Assembly (NCBI RefSeq): GCF_017876815.1
Contig: NZ_JAGIOS010000001.1
Location: 3,510,001 to 3,542,000, forward strand
Length of the DNA: 32,000 bases
From: Sinorhizobium meliloti
GTDB taxonomy: Bacteria > Pseudomonadota > Alphaproteobacteria > Rhizobiales > Rhizobiaceae
Reading direction: 5' to 3'
The position numbers and the translations under genes were made by a program. Below the pieces are notes generated by a model that was not told the DNA's origin, did no database searches, and worked only from the letters and a program-made list of their open reading frames with translations. Positions 3,507 through 22,471 of the stretch are shown here, one piece after another (the stretch's first letter is position 1; each line of letters opens with the position of its first letter).

Positions 3507-3514
3507 TGGATTCG

Positions 3515-3670
3515 ACCTCGTTGGGAGAAACCGGTTCGATCCGGTGCCGAAGGAGCAACCGCCCCGGAAACTCTCAGGCCAAAGGACCAGCAAGGTGCCG
3601 GTAGGACTCTGGAGAGAAGCGTTCGCGCTCGCCGAAGGGATAACAATCTCAGGCAAAGGGACAGAGGGGG
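3515..3670 (+). promoter_or_regulatory. Tandem glycine riboswitch (two aptamers) controlling gcvTHP
   Basis: Aptamer 1: GGGAGAAACCGG..CCGGUGCCGAAGGAGCAACCGCC..CUCAGGCCAAAGGACCAGC. Aptamer 2: CUCUGGAGAGAAGCG..CGCUCGCCGAAGGGAUAACAAUCUCAGGCAAAGGGACAGAGG. Both match the GGAGA..CCGAAGG.GCAA..CUCAGGCAAAGGAC core, and the position upstream of gcvT is canonical. Confidence 0.88.
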
Positions 3671-3741: not shown

Positions 3742-4881
3742 TTGGAAGACGTTTCCACCTTGAAACACACGCCTTTGCACGCGCTGCACCTTTCGCTCGG
3801 TGCACGCATGGTGCCCTTCGCCGGTTACGACATGCCGGTCCAATACCCGGAAGGCGTATTGAAGGAGCACCTGCATACCCGCGCCGCCGCCGGCCTCTTC
3901 GACGTGTCCCACATGGGACAGATCGTCGTGCGGCCGAAATCGGGAAAAATCGAGGACGCGGCGCTGGCGCTGGAAAAGCTCGTGCCGGCGGATGTTCTCG
4001 GCCTCGCGGAAGGCCGACAGCGCTACGGCCTCTTCACCAATGCCGCAGGCGGCATTCTCGACGACCTGATGATCGTCAATCGCGGCGATCATCTCTTCCT
4101 CGTCGTCAACGCGGCCTGCAAGGATGCCGATCTTGCGCATCTCAAGGACGGTCTCGGCAGCGTCTGCGACGTGACCATGCTGACCGACCGTGCCCTGATC
4201 GCCCTTCAGGGACCCCGGGCCGGAGCGGTCCTCTGCGAACTCTGGGCGGACGTCTCGTCGATGCGCTTCATGGATGTCACCGAAGCCGACCTTCACGATG
4301 TGAGCTGCATCATCTCCCGCTCCGGCTACACCGGCGAGGATGGCTTCGAGATATCCATTCCCGCGGAAGCGGCTGTGGATGTGACGCAGCGCCTGCTCGA
4401 ACATCCCGACGTTCTGCCCATCGGGCTCGGCGCGCGCGACTCGCTCCGCCTCGAAGCGGGGCTTTGTCTCTATGGCAACGATATCGACACGAATACGAGC
4501 CCCATCGAAGCAGGCCTCGAATGGGCGATCCAGAAAAGCCGCCGCGCCGGCGGTGAGCGCGCCGGCGGCTTTCCGGGCGCCGGCCGGATACTGGCCGAGC
4601 TAACCGACGGAGTTTCCAGGCGGCGTGTCGGCCTGAGGCCCGAAGGCCGGGCGCCGGTCCGCGGCAATGCCAATCTCTTCGCCGATGAGGAGGGCAGAAC
4701 GGCGGCAGGAACCGTCACCTCCGGCGGCTTCGGTCCAAGCGTGGATGGACCGGTCGCCATGGGCTATGTCGACGCCGAGCACGCCGAAGTCGGCACCAGA
4801 CTGTTCGCAGAGGTGCGCGGCAAATACCTGCCCATCGCCGTCACTGCCCTGCCCTTCATCAAACAAACCTACAAACGCTGA
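3742..4881 (+). CDS. gcvT: Glycine cleavage system aminomethyltransferase (T protein)
   Basis: 379 aa. TTG start with GGAGG 6 nt upstream. Typical GcvT sequence ([48 protein letters not shown]) and gcvTHP context. Confidence 0.93.
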
Positions 4882-4897: not shown

Positions 4898-5260
4898 ATG
4901 CTGAAATTCACCGAGGAACACGAATGGCTGAAGATCGATGGCGACGTCGCGACCGTCGGCATCACGGAGCATGCCGCTGGCCAGCTCGGCGATCTTGTCT
5001 TCGTGGAACTGCCGGAAGCGGGTGCCAGCTTCTCCAAGGGCGACTCGGCCGCGACGGTCGAGTCCGTCAAGGCGGCTTCGGACGTCTATTGTCCGCTTGA
5101 TGGAGAAATCGTCGAGGTCAATCAGGCGATCGTCGACGATCCGTCGCTCGTCAACAGCGATCCGCAAGGCGCGGCCTGGTTCTTCAAGCTGAAGCTCGCC
5201 GATCCGGACGCTGCCAATGCGCTCCTGGACGAAGCGGCCTACAAGGAGTTCGTCGCCTGA
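4898..5260 (+). CDS. gcvH: Glycine cleavage system H protein (lipoyl carrier)
   Basis: 120 aa starting [11 protein letters not shown]. Lipoyl-lysine motif ESVKAAS. AGGAGA upstream. In frame within track ORF 4667..5260. Confidence 0.93.
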
Positions 5261-8124
5261 TGAGCATGCCCAAGGACTTTACCTTCACCGATTACAAGCC
5301 TTACGACTTCGCCAATCGACGTCACATCGGCCCTTCGCCGGCCGAGATGGACGAGATGCTGAAGGTCGTCGGCTATCCGAGCCTCGACGCGCTCATAGAC
5401 GACACCGTGCCGCCGTCGATCCGCCAGCGGACGCCGCTTGCCTGGGGCGCGCCGATGACCGAGCGCGAGGCACTCGACAAGCTGCGCGAGACGGCGAACC
5501 GCAACCGGAAGCTCGTCTCCCTGATCGGTCAGGGCTACTACGGGACCATCACCCCGCCGGTCATCCAGCGCAATATCCTCGAGAATCCGGCCTGGTACAC
5601 CGCCTATACGCCCTATCAGCCGGAAATCAGCCAGGGGCGGCTGGAAGCCCTGCTCAACTACCAGACCATGGTTTGCGATTTGACCGGCCTGGACGTCGCG
5701 AACGCCTCGTTGCTCGACGAGGCGACGGCGGCAGCCGAAGCAATGGCCATTGCCGAGCGCGTCGCAAAGTCCAAGGCGAAGGCGTTTTTCATCGATGAGA
5801 ACTGCCATCCCCAGACGATTGCGCTCCTGAAGACCCGGGCGGAGCCGCTCGGCTGGCAGATCGTCCTCGGCGATCCGTTCGAGGATCTGGACGCTGCCGG
5901 CGTCTTCGGCGCGATTTTCCAGTACCCCGGTACCTACGGCCATGTCCGCGACTTCTCGGGCCTGATCGCCAAACTCCATGGGCAGGGGGCAATCGCCGCC
6001 GTAGCAGCCGATCCGCTGGCGCTGGCGCTTCTGAAGTCTCCGGGTGAAATGGGCGCCGACATCGCGATCGGTTCGACCCAGCGCTTCGGCGTTCCGGTCG
6101 GCTACGGCGGACCGCACGCCGCCTATATGGCGGTCAAGGATGCCTATAAGCGCTCCATGCCCGGCCGCCTCGTGGGCGTGTCGGTCGATGCGCGGGGCAA
6201 CCGCGCCTACCGGCTGTCGCTCCAGACCCGTGAACAGCATATCCGGCGCGAAAAGGCGACATCGAACATCTGTACCGCGCAGGTGCTGCTTGCCGTCATG
6301 GCCTCCATGTATGCGGTCTTCCACGGTCCGGACGGAATAAAGGCGATCGCCCAGAGCGTGCACCAGAAGACGGTCCGGCTTGCCATGGGATTGGAGAAGC
6401 TCGGCTATACCGTCGAGCCGGATGTCTTCTTCGATACGATCACCGTCGAAGTCGGCAAGCTGCAAGGCATCATCCTCAAAGCCGCCGTGGCCGAGGAGGT
6501 AAACCTTCGCAAGATCGGCACGACCAGGATCGGCATCAGTCTCGACGAGCGTTCGAGGCCGGTCACGCTCGAGGCCGTCTGGCGCGCCTTCGGGGGCGAT
6601 TTCAAGGTCGAGGAGTTCGAGCCGGACTACCGCCTGCCGCAGGAACTGCTGCGCACCAGCGCCTATCTCACCCATCCGATCTTCCATATGAACCGCGCCG
6701 AGAGCGAGATGACGCGTTACATGCGCCGCCTCGCCGATCGCGATCTTGCGCTCGACCGCGCGATGATCCCGCTCGGCTCCTGCACGATGAAGCTCAACGC
6801 GACCGCGGAGATGCTGCCGATCACCTGGCCGGAGTTCTCGGAAATCCATCCCTTCGTGCCGGCCGACCAGGCACTCGGCTATCAGCATCTCATCGAAGAC
6901 CTGTCGCAAAAGCTCTGCGCGATCACCGGCTACGATGCGATCTCGATGCAGCCGAACTCGGGTGCCCAGGGTGAATATGCCGGTCTGCTCGCGATCCGCG
7001 CCTACCATATCGCCAACGGCAACGAGCATCGCGACGTCTGCCTGATACCGACCTCGGCGCACGGCACCAACCCGGCCTCGGCGCAGATGGCCGGCATGAA
7101 GGTGGTGGTCGTCAAGGTGAGCGACGCCGGCGAGATCGATATGGACGATTTCCGCGCCAAAGCGGAGCAGTATGCGGACACCCTCTCCTGCTGCATGATC
7201 ACCTATCCCTCGACGCACGGCGTGTTCGAGGAGAACGTCCGCGAAGTCTGCGAGGTCGTGCATAAGCACGGTGGCCAGGTCTATCTGGACGGCGCCAACA
7301 TGAATGCGATGGTTGGCCTTTCCCGCCCTGGCGACATCGGCTCGGATGTCAGCCATTTGAACCTGCACAAGACCTTCTGCATTCCGCATGGCGGCGGCGG
7401 TCCCGGCATGGGCCCGATCGGCGTCAAGTCGCATCTCGCCCCCTTCCTTCCGGGACACCCGCAGACCGACGGGCACGAGGGCGCCGTATCCGCCGCACCG
7501 TTCGGGTCGGCCTCGATCCTGCCGATCTCCTGGAGCTACTGCCTGATGATGGGCGGCGAAGGCCTGACGCAAGCGACCAAGGTGGCGATCCTCAACGCCA
7601 ATTACGTCGCCGCCCGGCTGAAGGGTGCCTATGACGTGCTCTACAAGTCGGCGAAAGGCCGGGTCGCGCATGAATGCATCATCGATACCCGTCCGCTCGC
7701 CGAAAGCGCCGGCGTCACGGTCGATGACGTCGCCAAGCGCCTGATCGACTGCGGCTTCCATGCACCGACGATGAGCTGGCCGGTCGCGGGCACACTGATG
7801 ATCGAACCCACGGAATCGGAAACGAAGGCCGAGCTCGACCGCTTCTGCGACGCCATGCTGGCAATCCGCGAAGAGGCCCGCGCCATCGAGGACGGCCGGA
7901 TGGACAAGGTCAACAATCCGCTGAAGAACGCGCCGCATACGGTCGAGGACCTCGTCGGCGACTGGGACCGGCCCTATTCGCGCGAGCAGGCCTGCTTCCC
8001 ACCGGGCGCCTTCCGCGTGGACAAATACTGGTCGCCGGTCAACCGTGTCGACAATGTCTATGGCGACCGCAATCTCGTCTGCACCTGCCCGCCGATCGAG
8101 AGCTACGCGGAAGCGGCGGAATGA
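5260..8124 (+). CDS. gcvP: Glycine dehydrogenase (decarboxylating), single-chain P protein
   Basis: 954 aa. The start overlaps the gcvH stop (TGATG). Conserved P-protein blocks are present ([34 protein letters not shown]). Confidence 0.95.
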
Positions 8125-8410: not shown

Positions 8411-9886
8411 TTACTCGGCGCTCTCGTCCGCAGCCTTCTTCTTGGCCGGGGCCTTCTTCTTCGGCGCGGCGGCTTCTTCGCCCTCGCCGGCTTCGGCCTT
8501 GGCGGCTGCCTTCTTCTTGGAGGCCGTCTTCTTGGCCGGCTTTTCGTCGCCCTCGTCGTCAGCCGTCAGCTCTTCCTTCGAGACCTTCTTGTCGGTCACC
8601 GAAACCTCGGTGAGCAGGTGGTCGACAACCTTCTCTTCGAAAAGCGGTGCGCGCAGCGAGGCGGCAGCACCGGGCGTGTTGCGGAAATATTCGAGGATTT
8701 CCTTTTCCTGGCCGGGGAACTGGCGCAGCTGCTCGAACAGCGAACGCTGCATCTCGTCATCGCTGACCTGAACGCCGGCCTTTTCGCCGATCTCGGAGAG
8801 AACCAGACCGAGGCGGACGCGACGCTCGGCGAGCTTGCGATATTCGGCTCGCGCTTCCTCTTCCGTCGTGTCTTCATCGGCGAAGGTCTTGCCGGCCTGC
8901 TGCAGGTCGGTGTTGATCTGGCGCCAGATGTTCTCGAACTCGGCATCGACGAGGCGCTCGGGTGTATCGAACTGATAGAGTTCGTCGAGCTGGTCGAGAA
9001 GCTGACGCTTGACCTTCTGGCGGGTGATCGAGCCGAACTGGCTTTCGATCTGGCCGCGGACGATTTCCTTCAGCTTGTCGACGGATTCGAGGCCGAGCTT
9101 CGTTGCGAGCTCGTCGTTGATCTCGATCGGGGCAGCGGCAGCGACGTCCTTGACGGTGATGTCGAAGGTCGCTTCCTTGCCGGCAAGGTTGGCTGCCGGA
9201 TAATCCGCCGGGAACGTGACCGTGATGGTCTTTTCATCGCCGGCCTTTACGCCGACAAGCTGCTCCTCGAAGCCCGGGATGAAGCGGTTGGACCCGAGCA
9301 CGAGCTCAGCATCTTCGTCCTTGCCGCCGTCGAAGGCTTCGCCGTCGACCTTGCCGAGATAGTCGACCGTGACGCGGTCGCCATTGGCAGCCTTGCCCTT
9401 CTTCGATTCGTAGGTGCGGGCGCTCTCGGCGATGCGCTGGATCTGCTCGTTGACTTCATCCTCGCTGACGTCGACGACCTCACGGGTGACCTTGATGCCG
9501 CTTGCATCCTTGAGTTCGATCGGCGGAATGATTTCGTAGGCGACCGTGAATTCGAAATCGGCTTGGGCGTTCAGGATCTTGTCGGCTTCCGCCTCGTCCT
9601 CGGTCATCGCGATTTCGGGCTGGGTTGCCGACTTCTCGCCGCGGCTCGTGAGGATTTCCGTCGGCTTTTCACGAACGATCTCGTTGACGAGATCGGCCAT
9701 GATCGACTTGCCGTAAACCTTCTTCAGGTGCGCAACCGGCACCTTGCCGGGACGGAAGCCATTGATGCGGACACGATCCTTCACCTCGACGAGGCGCTCG
9801 TTCATCCGAGCCTGCATTTCGTCGGCCGGGATAACGACCTTGAGTTCGCGCTTCAGCCCTTGAGCGAGCGTTTCGATAACCTGCAT
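8411..9886 (-). CDS. tig: Trigger factor (ribosome-associated peptidyl-prolyl isomerase)
   Basis: 491 aa starting [27 protein letters not shown]-like middle region ([19 protein letters not shown]). Lys/Ala-rich acidic tail. Confidence 0.93.
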
Positions 9887-10060
9887 GTTAAAACCTTCAC
9901 TTCACGTTGACAGTGCTCTTCCCTTGAAAGGCTAGGCGAGCACGTGAGCCGATCCATTTGCCGGGAGTGGCTTTACGCAATTCCGACCGCTTTGCAAGCA
10001 AAATGGCGCCTTGCCGGCCCTCCTCAGCGCCGAATACCGACGCGTGACTGCTATATCGTC

Positions 10061-10145
<85 letters not shown>

Positions 10146-10520
10146 CGTTCAGACGATCGCACCGCCCAAATCGCATTCCTCACAAGATTTCATCAGCGGA
10201 ATGCCGCGGATATTCTTGGGCCATGCGAAAGGTTCAGGGCTCCCGAGCGCGGCGTCTCTATAACACTCGTTTTCAACGGATCAAAGGGAAAATGCTCGCG
10301 CCCATTGCCCGCTCGCAGCCCGCGCTTCGAACGGCAAGCTTGAGGCTCCTTAGCAGAGGATGCCGGCAGAAACGTGATGCCGCGTCCCGACGCGTAACAG
10401 CCACTGGATCCGCGCCATCCATTGTCGGGACGGCGGACGGCCATCCGCGTTGCGCAATCCGCATATCTTCCATGTGGACATTGCACTGCACAAATCGATT
10501 TGAGGCCACTATATTCCAAT

Positions 10521-10737
10521 CATCGAGGCGCCGCGGTGATAGCCGGCCGGGCGCCGGCGGGAATGATCGCCCGCAGCGGGAAGTCCCGCAAAGATCCGGG
10601 CTTAAGCTCGACAGAATTCGAAGCAGCGCACTCCTCCTCCCATCGCCGCTTCGATGGATTGGCAACACTCCTCCTCCCGGTTGCCAATCGCCTTTATGAC
10701 GCCCGCCGGTCCTCCTCCCCCGACGGGCGTCATTTTC
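10521..10737 (+). ncRNA. CCUCCUCCC-motif sRNA, copy A (cuckoo / alpha-r14, NfeR1-like family), long form
   Basis: Three stem-loops each display CCTCCTCCC in the loop (10633-10641, 10670-10678, 10711-10719). The last is a GC stem followed by ATTTT. A CTATAT box lies at 10509-10514. The 5' end is estimated, and the core is 10620-10737. Confidence 0.75.
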
Positions 10738-10889
10738 CCTCAGATATCCCGGCGCATTTTGTATAACGATCCACTTGCCCATTATTTCGGCATTCTGTGA
10801 TCATTCGGCGCCTGAGCCATGCATCACTTGCATAGGTGCCATTCGCGGCAGCCCCTGGTAAAATCCGGGGGTTCGGCCTATATTCCAAT

Positions 10890-11018
10890 CATCGATCGGG
10901 CAGCGCACTCCTCCTCCCAGCGCGCCCGATACGGATTGGCGACACTCCTCCTCCCGGTTGCCAATCAGATCAAGCAACGCCCGCTGGACCTCCTCCCCCA
11001 GCGGGCGTTGTTTATTTC
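10890..11018 (+). ncRNA. CCUCCUCCC-motif sRNA, copy B (cuckoo / alpha-r14, NfeR1-like family)
   Basis: Same three-hairpin architecture, with CCTCCTCCC at 10910-10918, 10947-10955 and 10989-10997. Terminator AACGCCCGCTGG..CCAGCGGGCGTT followed by GTTTATTT. CTATAT lies at 10878-10883, and TATATTCCAATCATCGA is shared with copy A. About 129 nt. Confidence 0.8.
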
Positions 11019-11074
11019 TGCCTCCCCCCATCGCAGTGAAACCGAGAACCGCACGGCGGCGCGCCGCGTTCTAA

Positions 11075-11259
11075 GGTCTGTTGAGATTCGGGATACCCGG
11101 GGCGGCTTGTTTGATTCCCTCATCCCTGTGCTCGTCACAGGGATCCAGCCAGACCAAGTCCTTGGGCTGAAACAACGCTTCCCGCGCCGCAGACGCGGCG
11201 CTGCTGGATCTCTGTGACAAGCACAGAGATGAGGAGAGGAGAGATTGCAGACCTCCGAT
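11075..11259 (+). repeat. Dispersed ~187-bp three-hairpin intergenic repeat, copy A
   Basis: About 90% identical by eye to the reverse complement of 21631-21817. Internal hairpins are CCCTGTG-CTCGT-CACAGGG, GCGCCGC-AGAC-GCGGCGC and CTCTGTG-ACAAG-CACAGAG. ORFs across it look like translation artefacts (..LIPVLVTGIQ..). Confidence 0.85.
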
Positions 11260-11625
11260 ACGTTGTTTCCTGGGCCATGCAGTCGGCAATCTTGTCCGCA
11301 CCGCCCTGAACGCCGACAAACCCACGAGAGCCTCAACGCCATCATCTATCTCGCAGCAGCCGTCATAAACTCCAGATGAAATCTCAACAGGCCCTAAAAG
11401 ACCGCCACGGTCCTTGGAACGGTCTGGAAATGCGCAGGAAGCCCGCATCGGCACCAAAAGGTTAAGCCGCGGTTAACGCCGTTGAAAAGCTTTGCACGTC
11501 GCGCATGGGTGCGATGCAGCATTATCTCTGTAATCCCGGCTCAAACCGATTATATTCCGGTTCATAAGATGATGGCCAGCAAGAGAGATAGAGCGCTGGC
11601 GAACGACCTAGAAAGGAATAGGATC

Positions 11626-11769
11626 ATGAACCTCGCACGTTCTTTCAACAACTGGCGCAAGTATCGTCAGACCTGCAACGAACTCGGCCGCATGAGCGAC
11701 CGTGAGCTGACCGATCTCGGCATCGGCCGCGCAGACATCCCCTACGTTGCCCGTCAGGCAATCAAGTAA
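11626..11769 (+). CDS. DUF1127 domain small protein (47 aa)
   Basis: MNLARSFNNWRKYRQTCNELGRMSDRELTDLGIGRADIPYVARQAIK has the DUF1127 hallmark (W..YR.T..EL..LSDReL.DiGi.R.dI). AAGGAATAGGA RBS. Internal ATG of track ORF 11482..11769. Confidence 0.85.
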   Translation: MNLARSFNNWRKYRQTCNELGRMSDRELTDLGIGRADIPYVARQAIK

Positions 11770-11803
11770 GCATCAAAGCTTTCGCCAGATTGTGGCCTTT
11801 CAA

Positions 11804-11837
11804 ACGCCTTCCGGCTCCGCCGGTGGGCGTTTTTTTA
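11804..11837 (+). terminator. Intrinsic terminator after DUF1127 gene 1
   Basis: ACGCC..CCGG-CTCCG-CCGG..GGCGT hairpin followed by TTTTTTT. Confidence 0.75.
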
Positions 11838-12075
11838 TTCTGCTGGGCCGTTCTGATCTCGTGCAGTAGTCCCTGAGAAAGCAACTTAACCGATACTTGA
11901 TCGATGGCGCATTTTCGAGCCGGGCGAAATGCATGCTCACGAAATGATCGATGCACTGCACAAATGCATAGCAGATGCATCTACTTTGCACTCCATCTCC
12001 CAGTTAGACAAGCGTATAAGAACCTCAACGACGCAGACAATCACTGTCGCGAGCGATCTTCTTGAGGAAACGACC

Positions 12076-12219
12076 ATGAACCCGATTCGCATTGCAAAAA
12101 GCTGGATCAACTACCGCCGTACCGTTGCCGAGCTGGGCAGCCTTTCCAACCACGCTCTGAACGATATCGGCATTACCCGCTACGACATCCGCAACATCGC
12201 GGCTCGCTCCTTCCGCTAG
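12076..12219 (+). CDS. DUF1127 domain small protein (47 aa), paralog 2
   Basis: [52 protein letters not shown] lies 8 nt upstream. Internal ATG of track ORF 11929..12219. Confidence 0.85.
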
Positions 12220-12246
12220 TCGGATCGAGTATTGCTTGGCTTGAAG

Positions 12247-12276
12247 ACGGCGCCCTCGGGCGCCGTTTTCGTTTCT
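12247..12276 (+). terminator. Intrinsic terminator after DUF1127 gene 2
   Basis: ACGGCGCC-CTCG-GGCGCCGT is a perfect 8-bp stem followed by TTTCGTTTC. Confidence 0.8.
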
Positions 12277-12311
12277 TGGAAGCGACGGATGCCTGTGGTA
12301 GGAAGCCGCCC

Positions 12312-13730
12312 ATGAACAAAACGACGTCCTCCCATTCGCCCATCCACGTCATCGGCGGCGGCCTCGCCGGGTCGGAAGCCGCCTGGCAGATCGCCGAAGC
12401 GGGCGTGCCGGTCATCCTGCATGAAATGCGCGGCGTGCGTGGCACCGATGCGCACAAGACCGAGAGCCTCGCCGAACTCGTCTGCTCAAATTCTTTCCGC
12501 TCCGACGATGCGACCAGCAATGCCGTCGGCGTGCTCCATGCGGAGATGCGTCTTGCGGGCTCCCTCATCATGCGATGCGCCGATCTCAACCAGGTGCCTG
12601 CAGGCGGTGCGCTCGCGGTCGACCGCGAAGGCTTTGCCGAGGCAGTCAGCGCAGCGATCGCAGACCATCCGCTGATCACGGTTCTTCGGGAAGAGATCCG
12701 GGGCCTGCCGCCGAAGGACTGGGATCTCGCCATCATTGCGACGGGCCCGCTGACAGCACCGGACCTCGCCGAGGCGATCCGCGCGGAGACCGGCGCCGAT
12801 GCCCTCGCCTTCTTCGACGCCATCGCACCGATCGTCCATGCCGACACGATCGACATGGATATCTGCTGGCACCAGTCGCGCTACGACAAGGTCGGCCCGG
12901 GCGGCACGGGCAAGGATTATATCAACTGCCCGCTCACACAGGAGCAGTATGACGCCTTCGTCGATGCGCTCATTGCCGGCGACAAGGCCGGCTTCAAGGA
13001 ATGGGAAGGCACGCCCTATTTCGACGGCTGCCTTCCGATCGAAGTGATGGCAGAGCGCGGCCGAGAGACCCTGCGTCACGGGCCGATGAAGCCGATGGGC
13101 CTCACCAATGCCCATAATCCGTCGGTCAAGCCCTATGCAGTAGTGCAGCTTAGGCAGGACAACGCGCTCGGCACGCTCTACAACATGGTCGGCTTCCAGA
13201 CGAAACTGAAATACGGCGCGCAAGGCGAAGTCTTCCGGATGATTCCGGGGCTCCAGAATGCCGAGTTTGCGAGGCTCGGCGGCCTGCACCGCAACACCTA
13301 TATCAACTCACCGACGCTCCTCGATCATTCGCTGACGCTCAAGTCACGTCCGGGACTGCGCTTTGCCGGCCAGATAACCGGCTGCGAGGGCTATGTGGAA
13401 AGCGCGAGCATCGGCCTCCTGGCGGGCCGCTTCGCCGCGGCGGAACGCAAAGGCGTGTCTCCCGTGCTACCGCCGGTGACCACGGCCTTCGGTGCTCTCC
13501 TCGATCACATCACCGGCGGCCACATCGTCTCCGACGACGAACCGGGCAAGCGCTCGTTCCAGCCGATGAATATCAATTTCGGGCTGTTTCCGCCGCTCGA
13601 GCCGGGCGCCCTGACAAGGCCGGAGGGTGCCAAACGCTTCCGGGGCAAGGAGAAGGCGCTCGCCAAGAAGCAGGCGATGGCATCGCGCGCGCTGAGCGAT
13701 TGCGCAAGCTGGCTCGACCAAGCCGTCTGA
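12312..13730 (+). CDS. trmFO: Methylenetetrahydrofolate--tRNA-(uracil54-C5)-methyltransferase TrmFO (Gid)
   Basis: 472 aa from ATG 12312 (AGGAAG upstream). The track start at 12276 lies inside the preceding terminator. FAD fold motif [14 protein letters not shown]. TrmFO-typical blocks ([24 protein letters not shown]). Confidence 0.9.
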
Positions 13731-18637: not shown

Positions 18638-18975
18638 CGATCACTCCTTGAGTTCAAATTGCGCGCTTGCCCCCGCGGCAAACCTGCCGGAATATAGGCA
18701 AGCCGTCCCGTAACACAAATCGTCGGTACACTTCCCCGTTTCTCCTGCCTCTGGCACAAATTCCGCAGCAGGAGAACCCCCTGGTTGCAGGCTGCCGGTC
18801 TTTTCCAGCGCAAACCGCCGTGCTACCGAGAAAAACGCCGCCGGCGGCAGCTTCAACGGATTCGACCGGAGGATGAACGTCGCGGCGATTCAAGGATTTG
18901 GGTGGGCTGACGCACGCCCGTTATCGCGCGGGTCGGCCGCCCAGTTCGAAATTCAGCCTGCCGGAGATACATGAA

Positions 18976-21630: not shown

Positions 21631-21817
21631 ATCGGAGGTCTGCAAACTCTCCGCACCTCATCTCTGTGCTTGTCACAGAGATGAGAGCAGCGCCGCGTCT
21701 GCGGCGCGGGGAAGCGTTCTTTCAGCCCAAGGACTTGGCCTGACTGGATCCCTGTGACGAGCACAGGGATGAGGAGATCAAACAAGCCGCGGCGGGTATC
21801 CCGGATCTCAACAGGCC
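21631..21817 (-). repeat. Dispersed ~187-bp three-hairpin intergenic repeat, copy B (inverted relative to copy A)
   Basis: The reverse complement aligns with 11075-11259 at about 90% by eye. It abuts the stop codon (21818-21820) of the upstream hypothetical gene and lies in the NlpD-like promoter region. Confidence 0.85.
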
Positions 21818-22471
21818 CTATAGCAGCTCGGAATAAAGCCGTTCGATTTCGGTCATCGGTCTCGGCTCGGGCGCATCTACCTCATAGCTGATGTTGGACG
21901 CATCCCAGGCGAAAAAGGCGCGCTCTGCCGGCGACATCGTGGTTGTGGCCGGCGAAGGGGCAATCTTGTCTTCCTCGAGAAAGACGCTGACCAGGTTCTC
22001 GAATTCGGCATCCATGTCGAGGCCGCTGTCGGCATCATAATCGAGCGACCGCAGGCCCGCGACCGCCGCTTCGCGCGTCCCGAAATAGCGCAGGCTGTTC
22101 TGATCCTCCGGGCGAAGGCCGTCATAATAGTCGATGAAGGCCCGGTAATATGCCCTGTAGTCACCGGTTTCGGCGAGCCTGCCGAACGCCTGGTGTTCGC
22201 GTGCCGCTAGTTGCGGCGAAAGACGATTGTTCCACTCGTCCTTCGTGAGAGGCGGCAATTTCTCAGGCGTTCTTTTGGCCCGGCCGAGATAGAGCAGCGC
22301 GTCGGCGGAAAGCGAAATGCGCGGTGTCGGATCGACGAAGCCCGTAGGCGGAACCGGCACCCCGCTCTCGCCCTTGTCTGCGGCACCGGTCGGGTCAGCC
22401 GAACGCCCGGCAAGATTGCCCAAGCCGTCGCCTGACGCAGCGGCAGCGTTCAACCTGTTCTCGATCTGCAT
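21818..22471 (-). CDS. Hypothetical acidic cytoplasmic protein (217 aa)
   Basis: ATG 22471 with GGAGA 7 nt upstream (the track start at 22522 is less likely). No signal peptide or recognisable domain. Tyr/Asp-rich core (DYRAYYRAFIDYYDGLRPED). Confidence 0.5.
   Translation of the reverse strand: MQIENRLNAAAASGDGLGNLAGRSADPTGAADKGESGVPVPPTGFVDPTPRISLSADALLYLGRAKRTPEKLPPLTKDEWNNRLSPQLAAREHQAFGRLAETGDYRAYYRAFIDYYDGLRPEDQNSLRYFGTREAAVAGLRSLDYDADSGLDMDAEFENLVSVFLEEDKIAPSPATTTMSPAERAFFAWDASNISYEVDAPEPRPMTEIERLYSELL

Follow-up and report, generated by a model that had tools for sequence, protein, structure and literature searches.

The neighbourhood termed CIN1 was described as a cuckoo RNA, or a cluster of such RNAs, flanked by OG1, a DUF1127 gene, and bordered in Rhizobiaceae by a tRNA-Leu and a tRNA methyltransferase (Reinkensmeier & Giegerich 2015, PMC4615179). 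The same study showed that the association of these sRNAs with DUF1127 genes reaches Rhodobacteraceae, Brucellaceae, and Phyllobacteriaceae. That Sinorhizobium has a second DUF1127 gene and the opposite order was already covered in that work and in that of Grützner et al. 2021 (PMC8034643), in which the S. meliloti locus was drawn with one RpoH promoter and its sRNAs were taken as apparently 5′ UTR-derived. RpoH1/2 responsiveness was reported for both DUF1127 proteins. The DUF1127 domain is very widespread among small proteins, and its action is debated between RNA binding and sensor-kinase binding. The proteins are adaptors rich in arginine, and their known partners in relatives are RNA (for CcaF1) and the sensor kinase PhoR (for the Agrobacterium SDPs).

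Among the S. meliloti sRNAs, NfeR1 (SmelC397/SmrC14/Smr14C2) was published with a size of 123 nt and a mapped start site, and it is described as currently the only known rhizobial sRNA that broadly influences symbiosis. LsrB activates NfeR1 and NtrC represses it, with the LsrB site of PnfeR1 at -72 to -57 and the NtrC site at -116 to -100, and a review lists the sRNA as RpoD-dependent. Northern blots reportedly failed to detect the tandem copies of NfeR1 reliably. VtlR, in turn, directly activates atu1667 in A. tumefaciens and bab1_0914 and bab2_0512 in Brucella (PMC7486931).

Identity of the locus

The window analysed here, a 32,000-nt stretch of S. meliloti DNA, was collinear with strain 1021, and the region was 99.9% identical to S. 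meliloti chromosomes (CP136301.1) and 98% identical to CP021812.1, which amounts to strain-level differences only. Strain 1021 coordinates (c) were converted to window positions (w) by c = 1678504 - w, which placed NfeR1 (1667613-1667492) on the second sRNA of the window (sRNA B); as a cross-check, the published PhaR site at 1667000 fell at w = 11504. The annotated S. meliloti context reads tig, DUF1127, DUF1127, trmFO. In the window, tig (8411-9886, - strand) lay to the left of a tRNA-Leu with anticodon TAG (10062..10146, - strand; ARAGORN and Rfam tRNA), which forms the left CIN1 flank, the first DUF1127 gene began at 11626, and trmFO (12313-13730, + strand) followed the terminator of the second. 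This arrangement was identical in 52/52 of the closest loci.

The locus is thus the already known S. meliloti CIN1 neighbourhood, comprising NfeR1, its tandem sRNA copy, and two DUF1127 mini-protein genes, and its full order would be tRNA-Leu, Smr14C1, NfeR1, a MITE-like repeat, SMc02051, SMc02052, trmFO. As the neighbourhood was published between 2015 and 2021, the arrangement itself adds no new biology. What the present analysis adds is modest: separate transcripts, a similar box at equal spacing in all four units, and a PhaR-like core in three of them. In the published accounts of the locus that were consulted, a box-to--10 architecture common to all four units was not found described.

The two ar14 sRNAs

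The preliminary description had placed five items on the + strand, namely two cuckoo-type sRNAs, a dispersed repeat, and two DUF1127 genes, and Rfam, Pfam, repeat comparison, and folding recovered all of them at or near the positions given there. Both sRNAs matched the Rfam ar14 family (RF02344) over its full length (model 1-123), with 109.2 bits for the body of sRNA A (10613..10735, + strand) and 107.8 bits for sRNA B (10891..11013, + strand) against a gathering score of 58.8. Both formed three hairpins, each loop of which carried CCUCCUCC(C); in full, the loops read CUCCUCCUCCC, CUCCUCCUCCC, and CCUCCUCCCCC, that is, anti-SD. An ar14 RNA is recognised by two to four hairpins, unpaired CCUCCUCCC anti-SD loops, and a last hairpin that acts as terminator with a U-run, and these traits were present in both sRNAs. 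The window sRNA B is NfeR1, since the 123-nt length, the mapped coordinates, and the positions of the LsrB- and NtrC-type boxes agree (TGCA-N6-GCAT at -71 to -58 and TGC-N11-GCA at -115 to -99). We infer that sRNA A is Smr14C1, the tandem copy of NfeR1.

A 5′ leader of 91 nt was predicted for sRNA A (10522..10612, + strand), with a start inferred from the -10 at 10510-15, which the start proposed earlier, 10521, also fits. Including this leader, which folds into four small hairpins, the sRNA A transcript would be ca. 215 nt long. The leader was absent in S. medicae and S. kostiense, but most loci of Ensifer, Pararhizobium, and Shinella had one, with a length of 91-135 nt; its covariation was modest, with compensatory changes in 2/15 predicted pairs.

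With three CCUCCUCCC loops each, the sRNAs block the ribosome-binding sites of many mRNAs. No special pairing of the anti-SD loops with the DUF1127 ribosome-binding sites was found, as the duplex energies of -9.1 and -9.6 kcal/mol ranked 18th and 16th of the 23 ribosome-binding regions in the window. The DUF1127 mRNAs were dropped as targets of the loops because these energies were unremarkable.

The DUF1127 genes and the dispersed repeat

The two 47-aa DUF1127 genes named in the preliminary description were upheld by Pfam PF06568, against a gathering cut-off of 23.3 bits, and by the S. meliloti annotation. Gene 1 (11626..11769, + strand; E = 9.5e-17, 60.9 bits) is SMc02051, the putative CcaF1-type member, and gene 2 (12076..12219, + strand; E = 1.3e-15, 57.2 bits) is SMc02052, whose protein was 40% identical to that of gene 1. 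Differences from orthologues fell mainly on codon position 3 in both genes, with counts for positions 1, 2, and 3 of 148/181/611 in 52 orthologues of gene 1 and 67/94/581 in 39 orthologues of gene 2, and with 0 internal stops in either. The SMc02051 protein was detected by proteomics (PMC12542648) and groups with the RSP_6037-type CIN1 DUF1127 proteins, and SMc02052 belongs to a separate cluster (PMC8034643). NCBIfam gave only sub-threshold, irrelevant matches, and a PDB profile search returned no solved DUF1127 relative. The repeat and the sRNAs are also overlapped, on either strand, by open reading frames of 126-251 aa; these had no Pfam match and were rejected as spurious.

A dispersed repeat of ca. 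376 nt (11023..11398, no strand assigned) occupies part of the 613 nt that separate NfeR1 from SMc02051, lying after the terminator of the former and before the promoter of the latter. Its MITE-like character was evident from terminal inverted repeats of 20 nt (11069-88 and 11380-99), from its many dispersed copies, and from orthologous sites that carry it in some genomes and lack it in others. A second, inverted copy lay at 21631-21820 of the window; pSymB records had copies at 19-23 places each, and a 3.7-Mb S. meliloti chromosome-sized record had them at 40 places or more. The repeat was missing from S. medicae and from a 93-95% identical relative (L082). The empty repeat site in this relative aligned uncleanly.

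Promoter boxes of the four units

A TGCR-N5/6-GCAT box stood 58-59 nt upstream of the -10 at all four units, and did so across species. In the sRNA A promoter (10451..10515, + strand), TGCG-N6-GCAT (10451-10464) was followed by the 14-mer TGCACTGCACAAAT, which includes a PhaR-like core over the -35 (10482-10495), and by the -10 TATATT (10510-10515); TGCG here replaces TGCA, with the spacing unchanged at 59 nt. The NfeR1 promoter (10776..10884, + strand) carried an NtrC-type TGC-N11-GCA (10776-10792), an LsrB-type TGCA-N6-GCAT (10820-10833), overlapping it the VtlR box GCAT-N3-TG-N3-T (10830-10842), and the -10 TATATT (10879-10884). In the gene 1 promoter (11493..11556, + strand), TGCA-N6-GCAT (11493-11506) overlapped the VtlR box GCATGGGTGCGAT (11503-11515) and the published PhaR site CATGGGTGCGATGCAGCATTA (11504-11524), with the -10 TATATT at 11551-11556. 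The gene 2 promoter (11952..12020, + strand) contained the same 14-mer TGCACTGCACAAAT (11952-11965), TGCA-N5-GCAT (11957-11969), and the -10-like TATAAG (12015-12020). The combined pattern TGCA-N5-6-GCAT-N42-46-TATAWK occurred in the 32 kb only at the NfeR1, gene 1, and gene 2 promoters, with 0.00 matches expected. In other species, the box was found at sRNA A in 40/52 loci and at gene 2, with the 58-nt spacing, in 52/53.

The preliminary description had noted TATATTCC at gene 1 and at both sRNA promoters and had argued from it for a shared regulon rather than co-transcription. The positions (10510, 10879, 11551) were as described, and the window held 4 copies against 0.14 expected by chance. 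However, the fourth copy precedes an unrelated yajC-like ORF that lacks an upstream box, and at sRNA B the element was unconserved between species, with only TAT.TT kept. The sigma-70 -10 consensus of S. meliloti is CTATAT. We rejected TATATTCC as a regulon-specific element, as it looks like an ordinary -10 box, so that it carries little weight for a regulon; the shared regulon itself was instead favoured by the common TGCR-N5/6-GCAT box and by the separate promoters and terminators.

TGCR-N5/6-GCAT is the type of box bound by LsrB/VtlR, a redox-responsive LysR regulator, and for this reason common LsrB activation of the four units would be the most likely logic. The VtlR box was present at gene 1 in 53/53 loci and at sRNA B in 36/53, against 2% of random 96-nt windows. 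In its strict form it was exact at NfeR1 and SMc02051 only, being one base off at sRNA A (GCATATCTTCCAT) and found on the - strand only at gene 2 (11955-11967). LsrB may control all four units, with gene 2 and sRNA A as the weakest step of this argument because there the strict box is reversed-only or absent, or one base off.

Possible PhaR control

SMc02051 is listed with two PhaR-like sites, TTATATTCCGGTTCATAAGAT is listed as a PhaR site, and the SMc02051 protein was up 4.6-fold in the absence of PhaR; PhaR binding at the locus is marked NE, which we read as not examined (PMC12542648). The PhaR core YGCRNYGCR occurred in 48/52 loci at sRNA A, 45/53 at gene 1, and 49/53 at gene 2, compared with 8% of random windows, and in 3/53 at sRNA B. 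The full 21-nt consensus WNWD2NYGCRNYGCRNH2WNW had no exact match in the window, and with two or fewer mismatches it gave 27 matches against 28.8 expected, showing no enrichment; both copies of the 14-mer TGCACTGCACAAAT, at sRNA A and gene 2, differ from it by 3 mismatches each when their flanks are included. Because the relaxed consensus was uninformative, PhaR control was argued from the 9-nt core and the 14-mer only, and these motifs provide a lead that PhaR might control Smr14C1 and SMc02052. The PhaR-like core at the three units other than NfeR1 offers a concrete hypothesis for when the undetected Smr14C1 is expressed. The unit-specific inputs would then be NtrC at NfeR1, PhaR at SMc02051, and probably PhaR at Smr14C1 and SMc02052.

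Probable separate transcription units

Every unit ended in a strong predicted terminator, a stem-loop followed by a U-run, in agreement with the earlier proposal that each unit has its own. Folding energies were -22.3 kcal/mol for sRNA A (z -6.1), -30.2 for NfeR1, -21.6 for gene 1 (11802..11839, + strand; z -4.6, then UUUUUUU), and -27.1 for gene 2 (12242..12281, + strand), with z-scores of -4.4 to -8.2 overall. A simple consensus scan caught 1/4 of these, that of gene 2, and folding revealed the remaining ones. The promoter block of every unit was conserved across species. Co-regulation was favoured over a single transcript because each unit has its own terminator and its own conserved promoter; the locus would thus consist of four short same-strand transcription units rather than one operon, each with a sigma-70-type -10, an upstream box, and a terminator. 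We consider it probable that four separate units share an LsrB/VtlR-type box, with unit-specific regulators layered on top.

A single transcript, from which the sRNAs are cut out of a long 5′ UTR of the SMc02051(-SMc02052) mRNA made from one RpoH-type promoter, would be the mirror image of Rhodobacter ccaF1-CcsR. The units do share one strand, and some terminator read-through is always possible, but such a transcript would have to pass the terminators of -22 and -30 kcal/mol with U-runs that close the two sRNAs, and NfeR1 has a mapped start, a 123-nt size, and an LsrB-dependent promoter. The spacer repeat is inserted in some genomes only, the SMc02051 promoter block is kept in 53/53 loci, and loci of the opposite order have a DUF1127 terminator along with a box and -10 of their own for the sRNA. 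By a published table, SMc02051 would also have a transcription start of its own, 37 nt before its ATG (PMC12542648). That start (window ca. 11589) is off from the one predicted from TATATT (ca. 11563), which indicates either two 5′ ends or that TATATT is part of an operator. By eye, no convincing or conserved RpoH-type -35/-10 was seen at gene 1 or gene 2. We regard the single transcript as very unlikely, and the separate units argue against the published suggestion of 5′ UTR-derived sRNAs. Equally slight is the chance that the common promoter features are a leftover of the duplication that gave the tandem sRNAs rather than a sign of common regulation. The sRNAs are 84-87% identical and share the exact 18-mer CTATATTCCAATCATCGA at their -10/start region, and sRNA A was reported as not detectably expressed. 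Duplication of the sRNAs, however, does not account for an equal box and spacing before two protein genes with promoters that otherwise have nothing in common with those of the sRNAs, nor for blocks that are each conserved over about 50 species, nor for a PhaR core that is frequent at sRNA A and rare at sRNA B (48/52 vs 3/53 loci).

Linkage in relatives

Related loci (n = 80) were gathered from an alignment of orthologues. In 75/80, an ar14 sRNA lay within ca. 1 kb of a DUF1127 gene on the same strand, which supports the earlier view of a conserved co-oriented module; the sRNAs were upstream in 66 loci, downstream in 9, and lacking in 5. All 133 of the 133 strong ar14 matches in 816 kb were on the DUF1127 strand and within ca. 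1 kb. The five loci lacking ar14, including two tig-linked Agrobacterium loci, retained the DUF1127 gene and the VtlR box.

This linkage raises the possibility that the proteins act on the sRNAs, and the conserved neighbourhood is a natural test site for such functional coupling. Loci of either gene order show the association (75/80 in all), as do Rhodobacteraceae, Brucellaceae, and Phyllobacteriaceae, and the CcaF1 protein of Rhodobacter binds CcsR1 and promotes the maturation of this sRNA. The same genes could also be neighbours by descent under a common regulator, with proteins that act elsewhere, for instance on PhoR, and leave the sRNAs unaffected. In Agrobacterium, PhoR is a binding partner of the short DUF1127 proteins, whose loss is complemented by a DUF1127 protein from S. 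meliloti; plasmid-borne cuckoo copies are weakly associated with DUF1127 genes; and both the five ar14-free loci and the unremarkable pairing of the anti-SD loops with the DUF1127 ribosome-binding sites point the same way. Set against the association across orders and families, this explanation appears possible but on the unlikely side.

An extended reading would join the locus into one regulatory unit, in which four LsrB/VtlR-type promoters have differing second inputs, NtrC at NfeR1 and PhaR cores at Smr14C1 and both DUF1127 genes that would be released on PHB accumulation, a Smr14C1 of ca. 215 nt bears a conserved hairpinned 5′ domain, and the proteins act on the co-induced sRNAs as CcaF1 does. 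Taken as a whole, this is a tentative proposal that we would not expect to hold in all its parts.

Comparison with known systems

The S. meliloti 1021 CIN1 (PMC4615179; PMC8034643; García-Tomsig et al. 2023, PMC10746234) is the same locus as that in the window. Gene order and spacing agree, with coordinates that map one-to-one, and so do the flanking tRNA-Leu, tig, and trmFO genes, the length of NfeR1 (123 nt), the placement of its LsrB and NtrC boxes, and both DUF1127 ORFs of 47 aa.

A related promoter logic is known from the VtlR/LsrB regulon of A. tumefaciens and B. abortus (abcR1/2, vrsA, atu1667, bab1_0914, bab2_0512; PMC7486931), where GCAT-N3-TG-N3-T precedes a small DUF1127 gene and sRNA genes, as it does here. 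Binding in that regulon was shown in other species and at other promoters, and gene 2 and sRNA A of the window are off the strict box. In Agrobacterium, the orthologues linked to tig (L053, L063) have the VtlR box at the same 58-nt spacing but lack an ar14 sRNA. For the PhaR (AniA) regulon, TGCACTGCACAAAT is the core of one listed phaP1 promoter site, and the phaP1 promoter bound PhaR efficiently (PMC12542648).

The ccaF1 (RSP_6037)-CcsR1-4 locus of Rhodobacter sphaeroides resembles the window in placing a DUF1127 gene beside clustered CCUCCUCCC sRNAs of the same orientation in a stress-responsive locus, and the orthologous group of CIN1 includes the RSP_6037 protein as well (PMC8034643). There, however, one transcript driven by RpoHI/HII yields the sRNAs, which lie downstream, carry two hairpins apiece, and are released from its 3′ UTR by RNase E; the protein has 71 aa. 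In the window the order is reversed, as the preliminary description had recognised: the sRNAs come first, are built of three hairpins, and are served by promoters and terminators of their own, and the protein of 47 aa is followed by a second DUF1127 gene.

Identity and Content of the Locus

Over positions 9800-12400, two S. meliloti-type chromosomes matched the window at 99.9% identity and two others at 98%, and the order tig, DUF1127, DUF1127, trmFO also occurred in an annotated S. meliloti record. Under the strain 1021 mapping c = 1678504 - w (c, strain 1021 coordinate; w, window position), the published NfeR1/SmelC397 (1667613-1667492) fell at 10891-11012, and the SMc02051 PhaR site published at 1667000 fell at 11504, where its exact sequence was present. 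This coordinate map, along with the chromosome match, identified the second of two ar14 sRNAs, sRNA B (10891-11013, + strand), as NfeR1 (SmrC14, 123 nt). We infer that the first, sRNA A (10613-10735, +), is Smr14C1, a tandem copy of NfeR1. Both were full-length Rfam RF02344 matches (109.2 bits for sRNA A and 107.8 bits for sRNA B; gathering score 58.8) with three hairpins each and CCUCCUCC(C) in each loop, and the exact 18-mer common to the two was best explained by tandem duplication.

The two DUF1127 genes, each encoding 47 aa, are SMc02051 (gene 1; 11626-11769, +; Pfam E = 9.5e-17) and SMc02052 (gene 2; 12076-12219, +; Pfam E = 1.3e-15), and their proteins were 40% identical. Differences by codon position numbered 148/181/611 against 52 orthologues of gene 1 and 67/94/581 against 39 orthologues of gene 2, mostly at position 3, and no internal stop occurred in any of these orthologues; therefore, both are real coding genes. 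All four units ended in a stable stem-loop followed by a U-run (folding dG of -22.3, -30.2, -21.6 and -27.1 kcal/mol), and none of the shuffled sequences matched their stability. A preliminary description had listed these features and a dispersed repeat as one co-oriented module; all were confirmed on the + strand, and the interpretation is supported.

The repeat (11023-11398) had inverted ends of 20 nt and was missing in a 93-95% identical relative and in S. medicae; some S. meliloti-type genomes carry this MITE-like element in the interval from NfeR1 to SMc02051. An inverted second copy was present at 21631-21820, and the element had 19-23 sites in each pSymB record and at least 40 in an S. 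meliloti record of 3.7 Mb. Public gene calls at two related loci (L083 and L086, 1864-2307; about window 10937-11380) placed a 147-aa ORF across NfeR1 and the repeat, probably a spurious annotation, as the overlapping window ORFs had no Pfam match.

The locus was flanked by tig (-), tRNA-Leu(TAG) (-) and trmFO (+). By tblastn, TrmFO (12313-13730) was 69-70% identical to S. medicae (L001 5676-6722; L081 3237-4079) over 281-349 of 472 residues, while in the same comparison Tig was 96-97% and the DNA about 87% identical; S. medicae trmFO was called at 409 aa, and a frameshift or faster evolution are possible causes of the low identity. Elsewhere in the window were a glycine riboswitch aptamer (3512-3599, +; Rfam RF00504, 62.3 bits) upstream of an ORF at 3742-4881, five tandem GGAGGTGACACTCACCTC-like units of 18-19 nt (150-259), and a 130-nt direct repeat pair of 80% identity (560-689 and 1099-1228).

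Linkage in Related Genomes

A search with an alignment of gene 1 orthologues yielded 80 loci, each from a different species, among them members of Sinorhizobium/Ensifer, Pararhizobium, Shinella, Rhizobium, Ciceribacter and Agrobacterium. With sRNAs A and B as the basis of a covariance model, 816 kb of sequence gave 133 strong matches, all on the same strand as a DUF1127 gene and within about 1 kb of it. One to three sRNAs preceded the gene at 66 of the 80 loci; at nine, the sRNA came about 365 nt after the start of the gene, and five had no sRNA. The proposed sRNA/DUF1127 linkage was thus kept in related genomes. Among the 52 closest loci, a second DUF1127 gene followed at 430-650 nt (about 2 kb in one exception), and tig lay upstream in nearly all.

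At five downstream-sRNA loci of Agrobacterium or Rhizobium type (L059, L068, L071, L073 and L075; about 5139-5375), the DUF1127 gene had its own terminator and the sRNA its own TGCA-N6-GCAT-N3-TG box, TGCACTGCA core and -10 box. Here too, the arrangement suggests separate units and not sRNAs derived from a 3' UTR.

Promoter Architecture and Regulation

Alignments across loci revealed conserved blocks upstream of each unit. A TGCR-N5/6-GCAT box started 58-59 nt upstream of the -10 hexamer at all four; gene 2 has the hexamer TATAAG, and the other three units have TATATT. The pattern TGCA-N5-6-GCAT-N42-46-TATAWK occurred three times in the 32-kb window (0.00 expected), only at the promoters of NfeR1, gene 1 and gene 2; the sRNA A box, equally spaced, had TGCG rather than TGCA. 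When measured across species, the box-to-hexamer spacing was 59 nt for sRNA A, 59-61 nt for NfeR1, 58-59 nt for gene 1 and 57-60 nt for gene 2.

At NfeR1, the box (-71 to -58) and a TGC-N11-GCA motif (-115 to -99) occupied the published LsrB and NtrC binding places, respectively. The box known for this LysR regulator (VtlR/LsrB) from Brucella and Agrobacterium, GCAT-N3-TG-N3-T (PMC7486931), was exact at NfeR1 and gene 1 (kept in 36/53 and 53/53 loci; 2% of random windows), one base off at sRNA A, and present in reverse orientation only at gene 2. The PhaR operator core YGCRNYGCR was found at sRNA A, where it sat over the -35 region, in 48/52 loci, at gene 1 in 45/53 and at gene 2 in 49/53, but at NfeR1 in only 3/53; among random windows, 8% had it. 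The region had exactly two copies of the 14-mer TGCACTGCACAAAT, one at sRNA A and the other at gene 2; this sequence equals the core of a site listed for the phaP1 promoter, to which PhaR bound efficiently, and SMc02051 is a PhaR-repressed protein with two listed sites (PMC12542648). The full 21-nt PhaR consensus showed no enrichment in the window, so PhaR control at sRNA A and gene 2 should be read as a lead rather than a result.

The preliminary description had taken the element TATATTCC (10510, 10879 and 11551, positions that held) as a sign of a shared regulon rather than co-transcription. That conclusion was right, but TATATTCC is not the evidence for it. The element, with four copies in the window against 0.14 expected, spans the -10 box, for which CTATAT is the S. 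meliloti sigma-70 consensus. Only TAT.TT was conserved within it among NfeR1 orthologues, and NfeR1 is listed as RpoD-dependent in a published review. The fourth copy (GCCTATATTCCGG; 18689-18696, -) preceded a yajC-like ORF (18644-18225, -) by about 45 nt, with no TGCA..GCAT box at its -58.

The best-supported reading is one of four separately transcribed, co-oriented units that would have a common LsrB-type activator and unit-specific overlays, by NtrC at NfeR1 and by PhaR at SMc02051 and probably also at Smr14C1 and SMc02052. Derivation of the Sinorhizobium sRNAs from the SMc02051 5' UTR, as suggested in PMC8034643, agrees poorly with the sequence: the sRNAs are separated from SMc02051 by two strong terminators and a 613-nt spacer, with a repeat found in some genomes only, a conserved promoter lies directly upstream of this gene, and a published table (PMC12542648) implies a separate start for it. 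That start (window ~11589) is inconsistent with the one predicted from TATATT, being 25 nt downstream; a second 5' end or RNA processing might account for the difference. The published start is 37 nt before the ATG and falls within the loop of a conserved hairpin (GGCCAGC...GCUGGC) in the 5' UTR.

The promoter of sRNA A was 91 nt upstream of the ar14 body, leaving a predicted leader (10522-10612), and so the tandem NfeR1 copy would be an RNA of ~215 nt, not 123 nt. The leader measured 91-135 nt in most Ensifer, Pararhizobium and Shinella loci, was lost in S. medicae and S. kostiense, and folded into small hairpins with modest covariation.

Comparison with Known Systems

NfeR1-type sRNAs block translation via three anti-SD loops, according to a published review; the DUF1127 mRNAs of this locus gave no sign of being sRNA targets. 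By analogy with the Rhodobacter DUF1127 protein CcaF1, which binds CcsR1 (an sRNA from the ccaF1 operon) and other RNAs and aids sRNA maturation (PMC8034643), the proteins encoded here may act on sRNAs. Alternatively, they may act via PhoR, like the short DUF1127 proteins of Agrobacterium; these are PhoR-binding proteins, and homologues from S. meliloti and Rhodobacter can take their place. Responsiveness to RpoH1/2 has been published for both the SMc02051 and SMc02052 proteins. Direct activation by VtlR is known for the A. tumefaciens DUF1127 gene atu1667 and, in Brucella, for bab1_0914 and bab2_0512 (PMC7486931), and tig-linked Agrobacterium orthologues carried the VtlR/LsrB box at the same spacing as here.

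The locus is CIN1, the published conserved neighborhood of cuckoo (ar14) RNAs, which in Rhizobiaceae has tRNA-Leu and tRNA methyltransferase flanks and often two three-hairpin cuckoo RNAs (PMC4615179). Since Grützner et al. 2021 (PMC8034643) explicitly described the Sinorhizobium version, in which the sRNAs are 5' of SMc02051 and the second DUF1127 ORF, which comes after SMc02051, belongs to a separate clade, the arrangement was already known from the literature. Two points of interest beyond it are the box architecture that the four units have in common and the PhaR-like cores, which distinguish Smr14C1 and both proteins from NfeR1.
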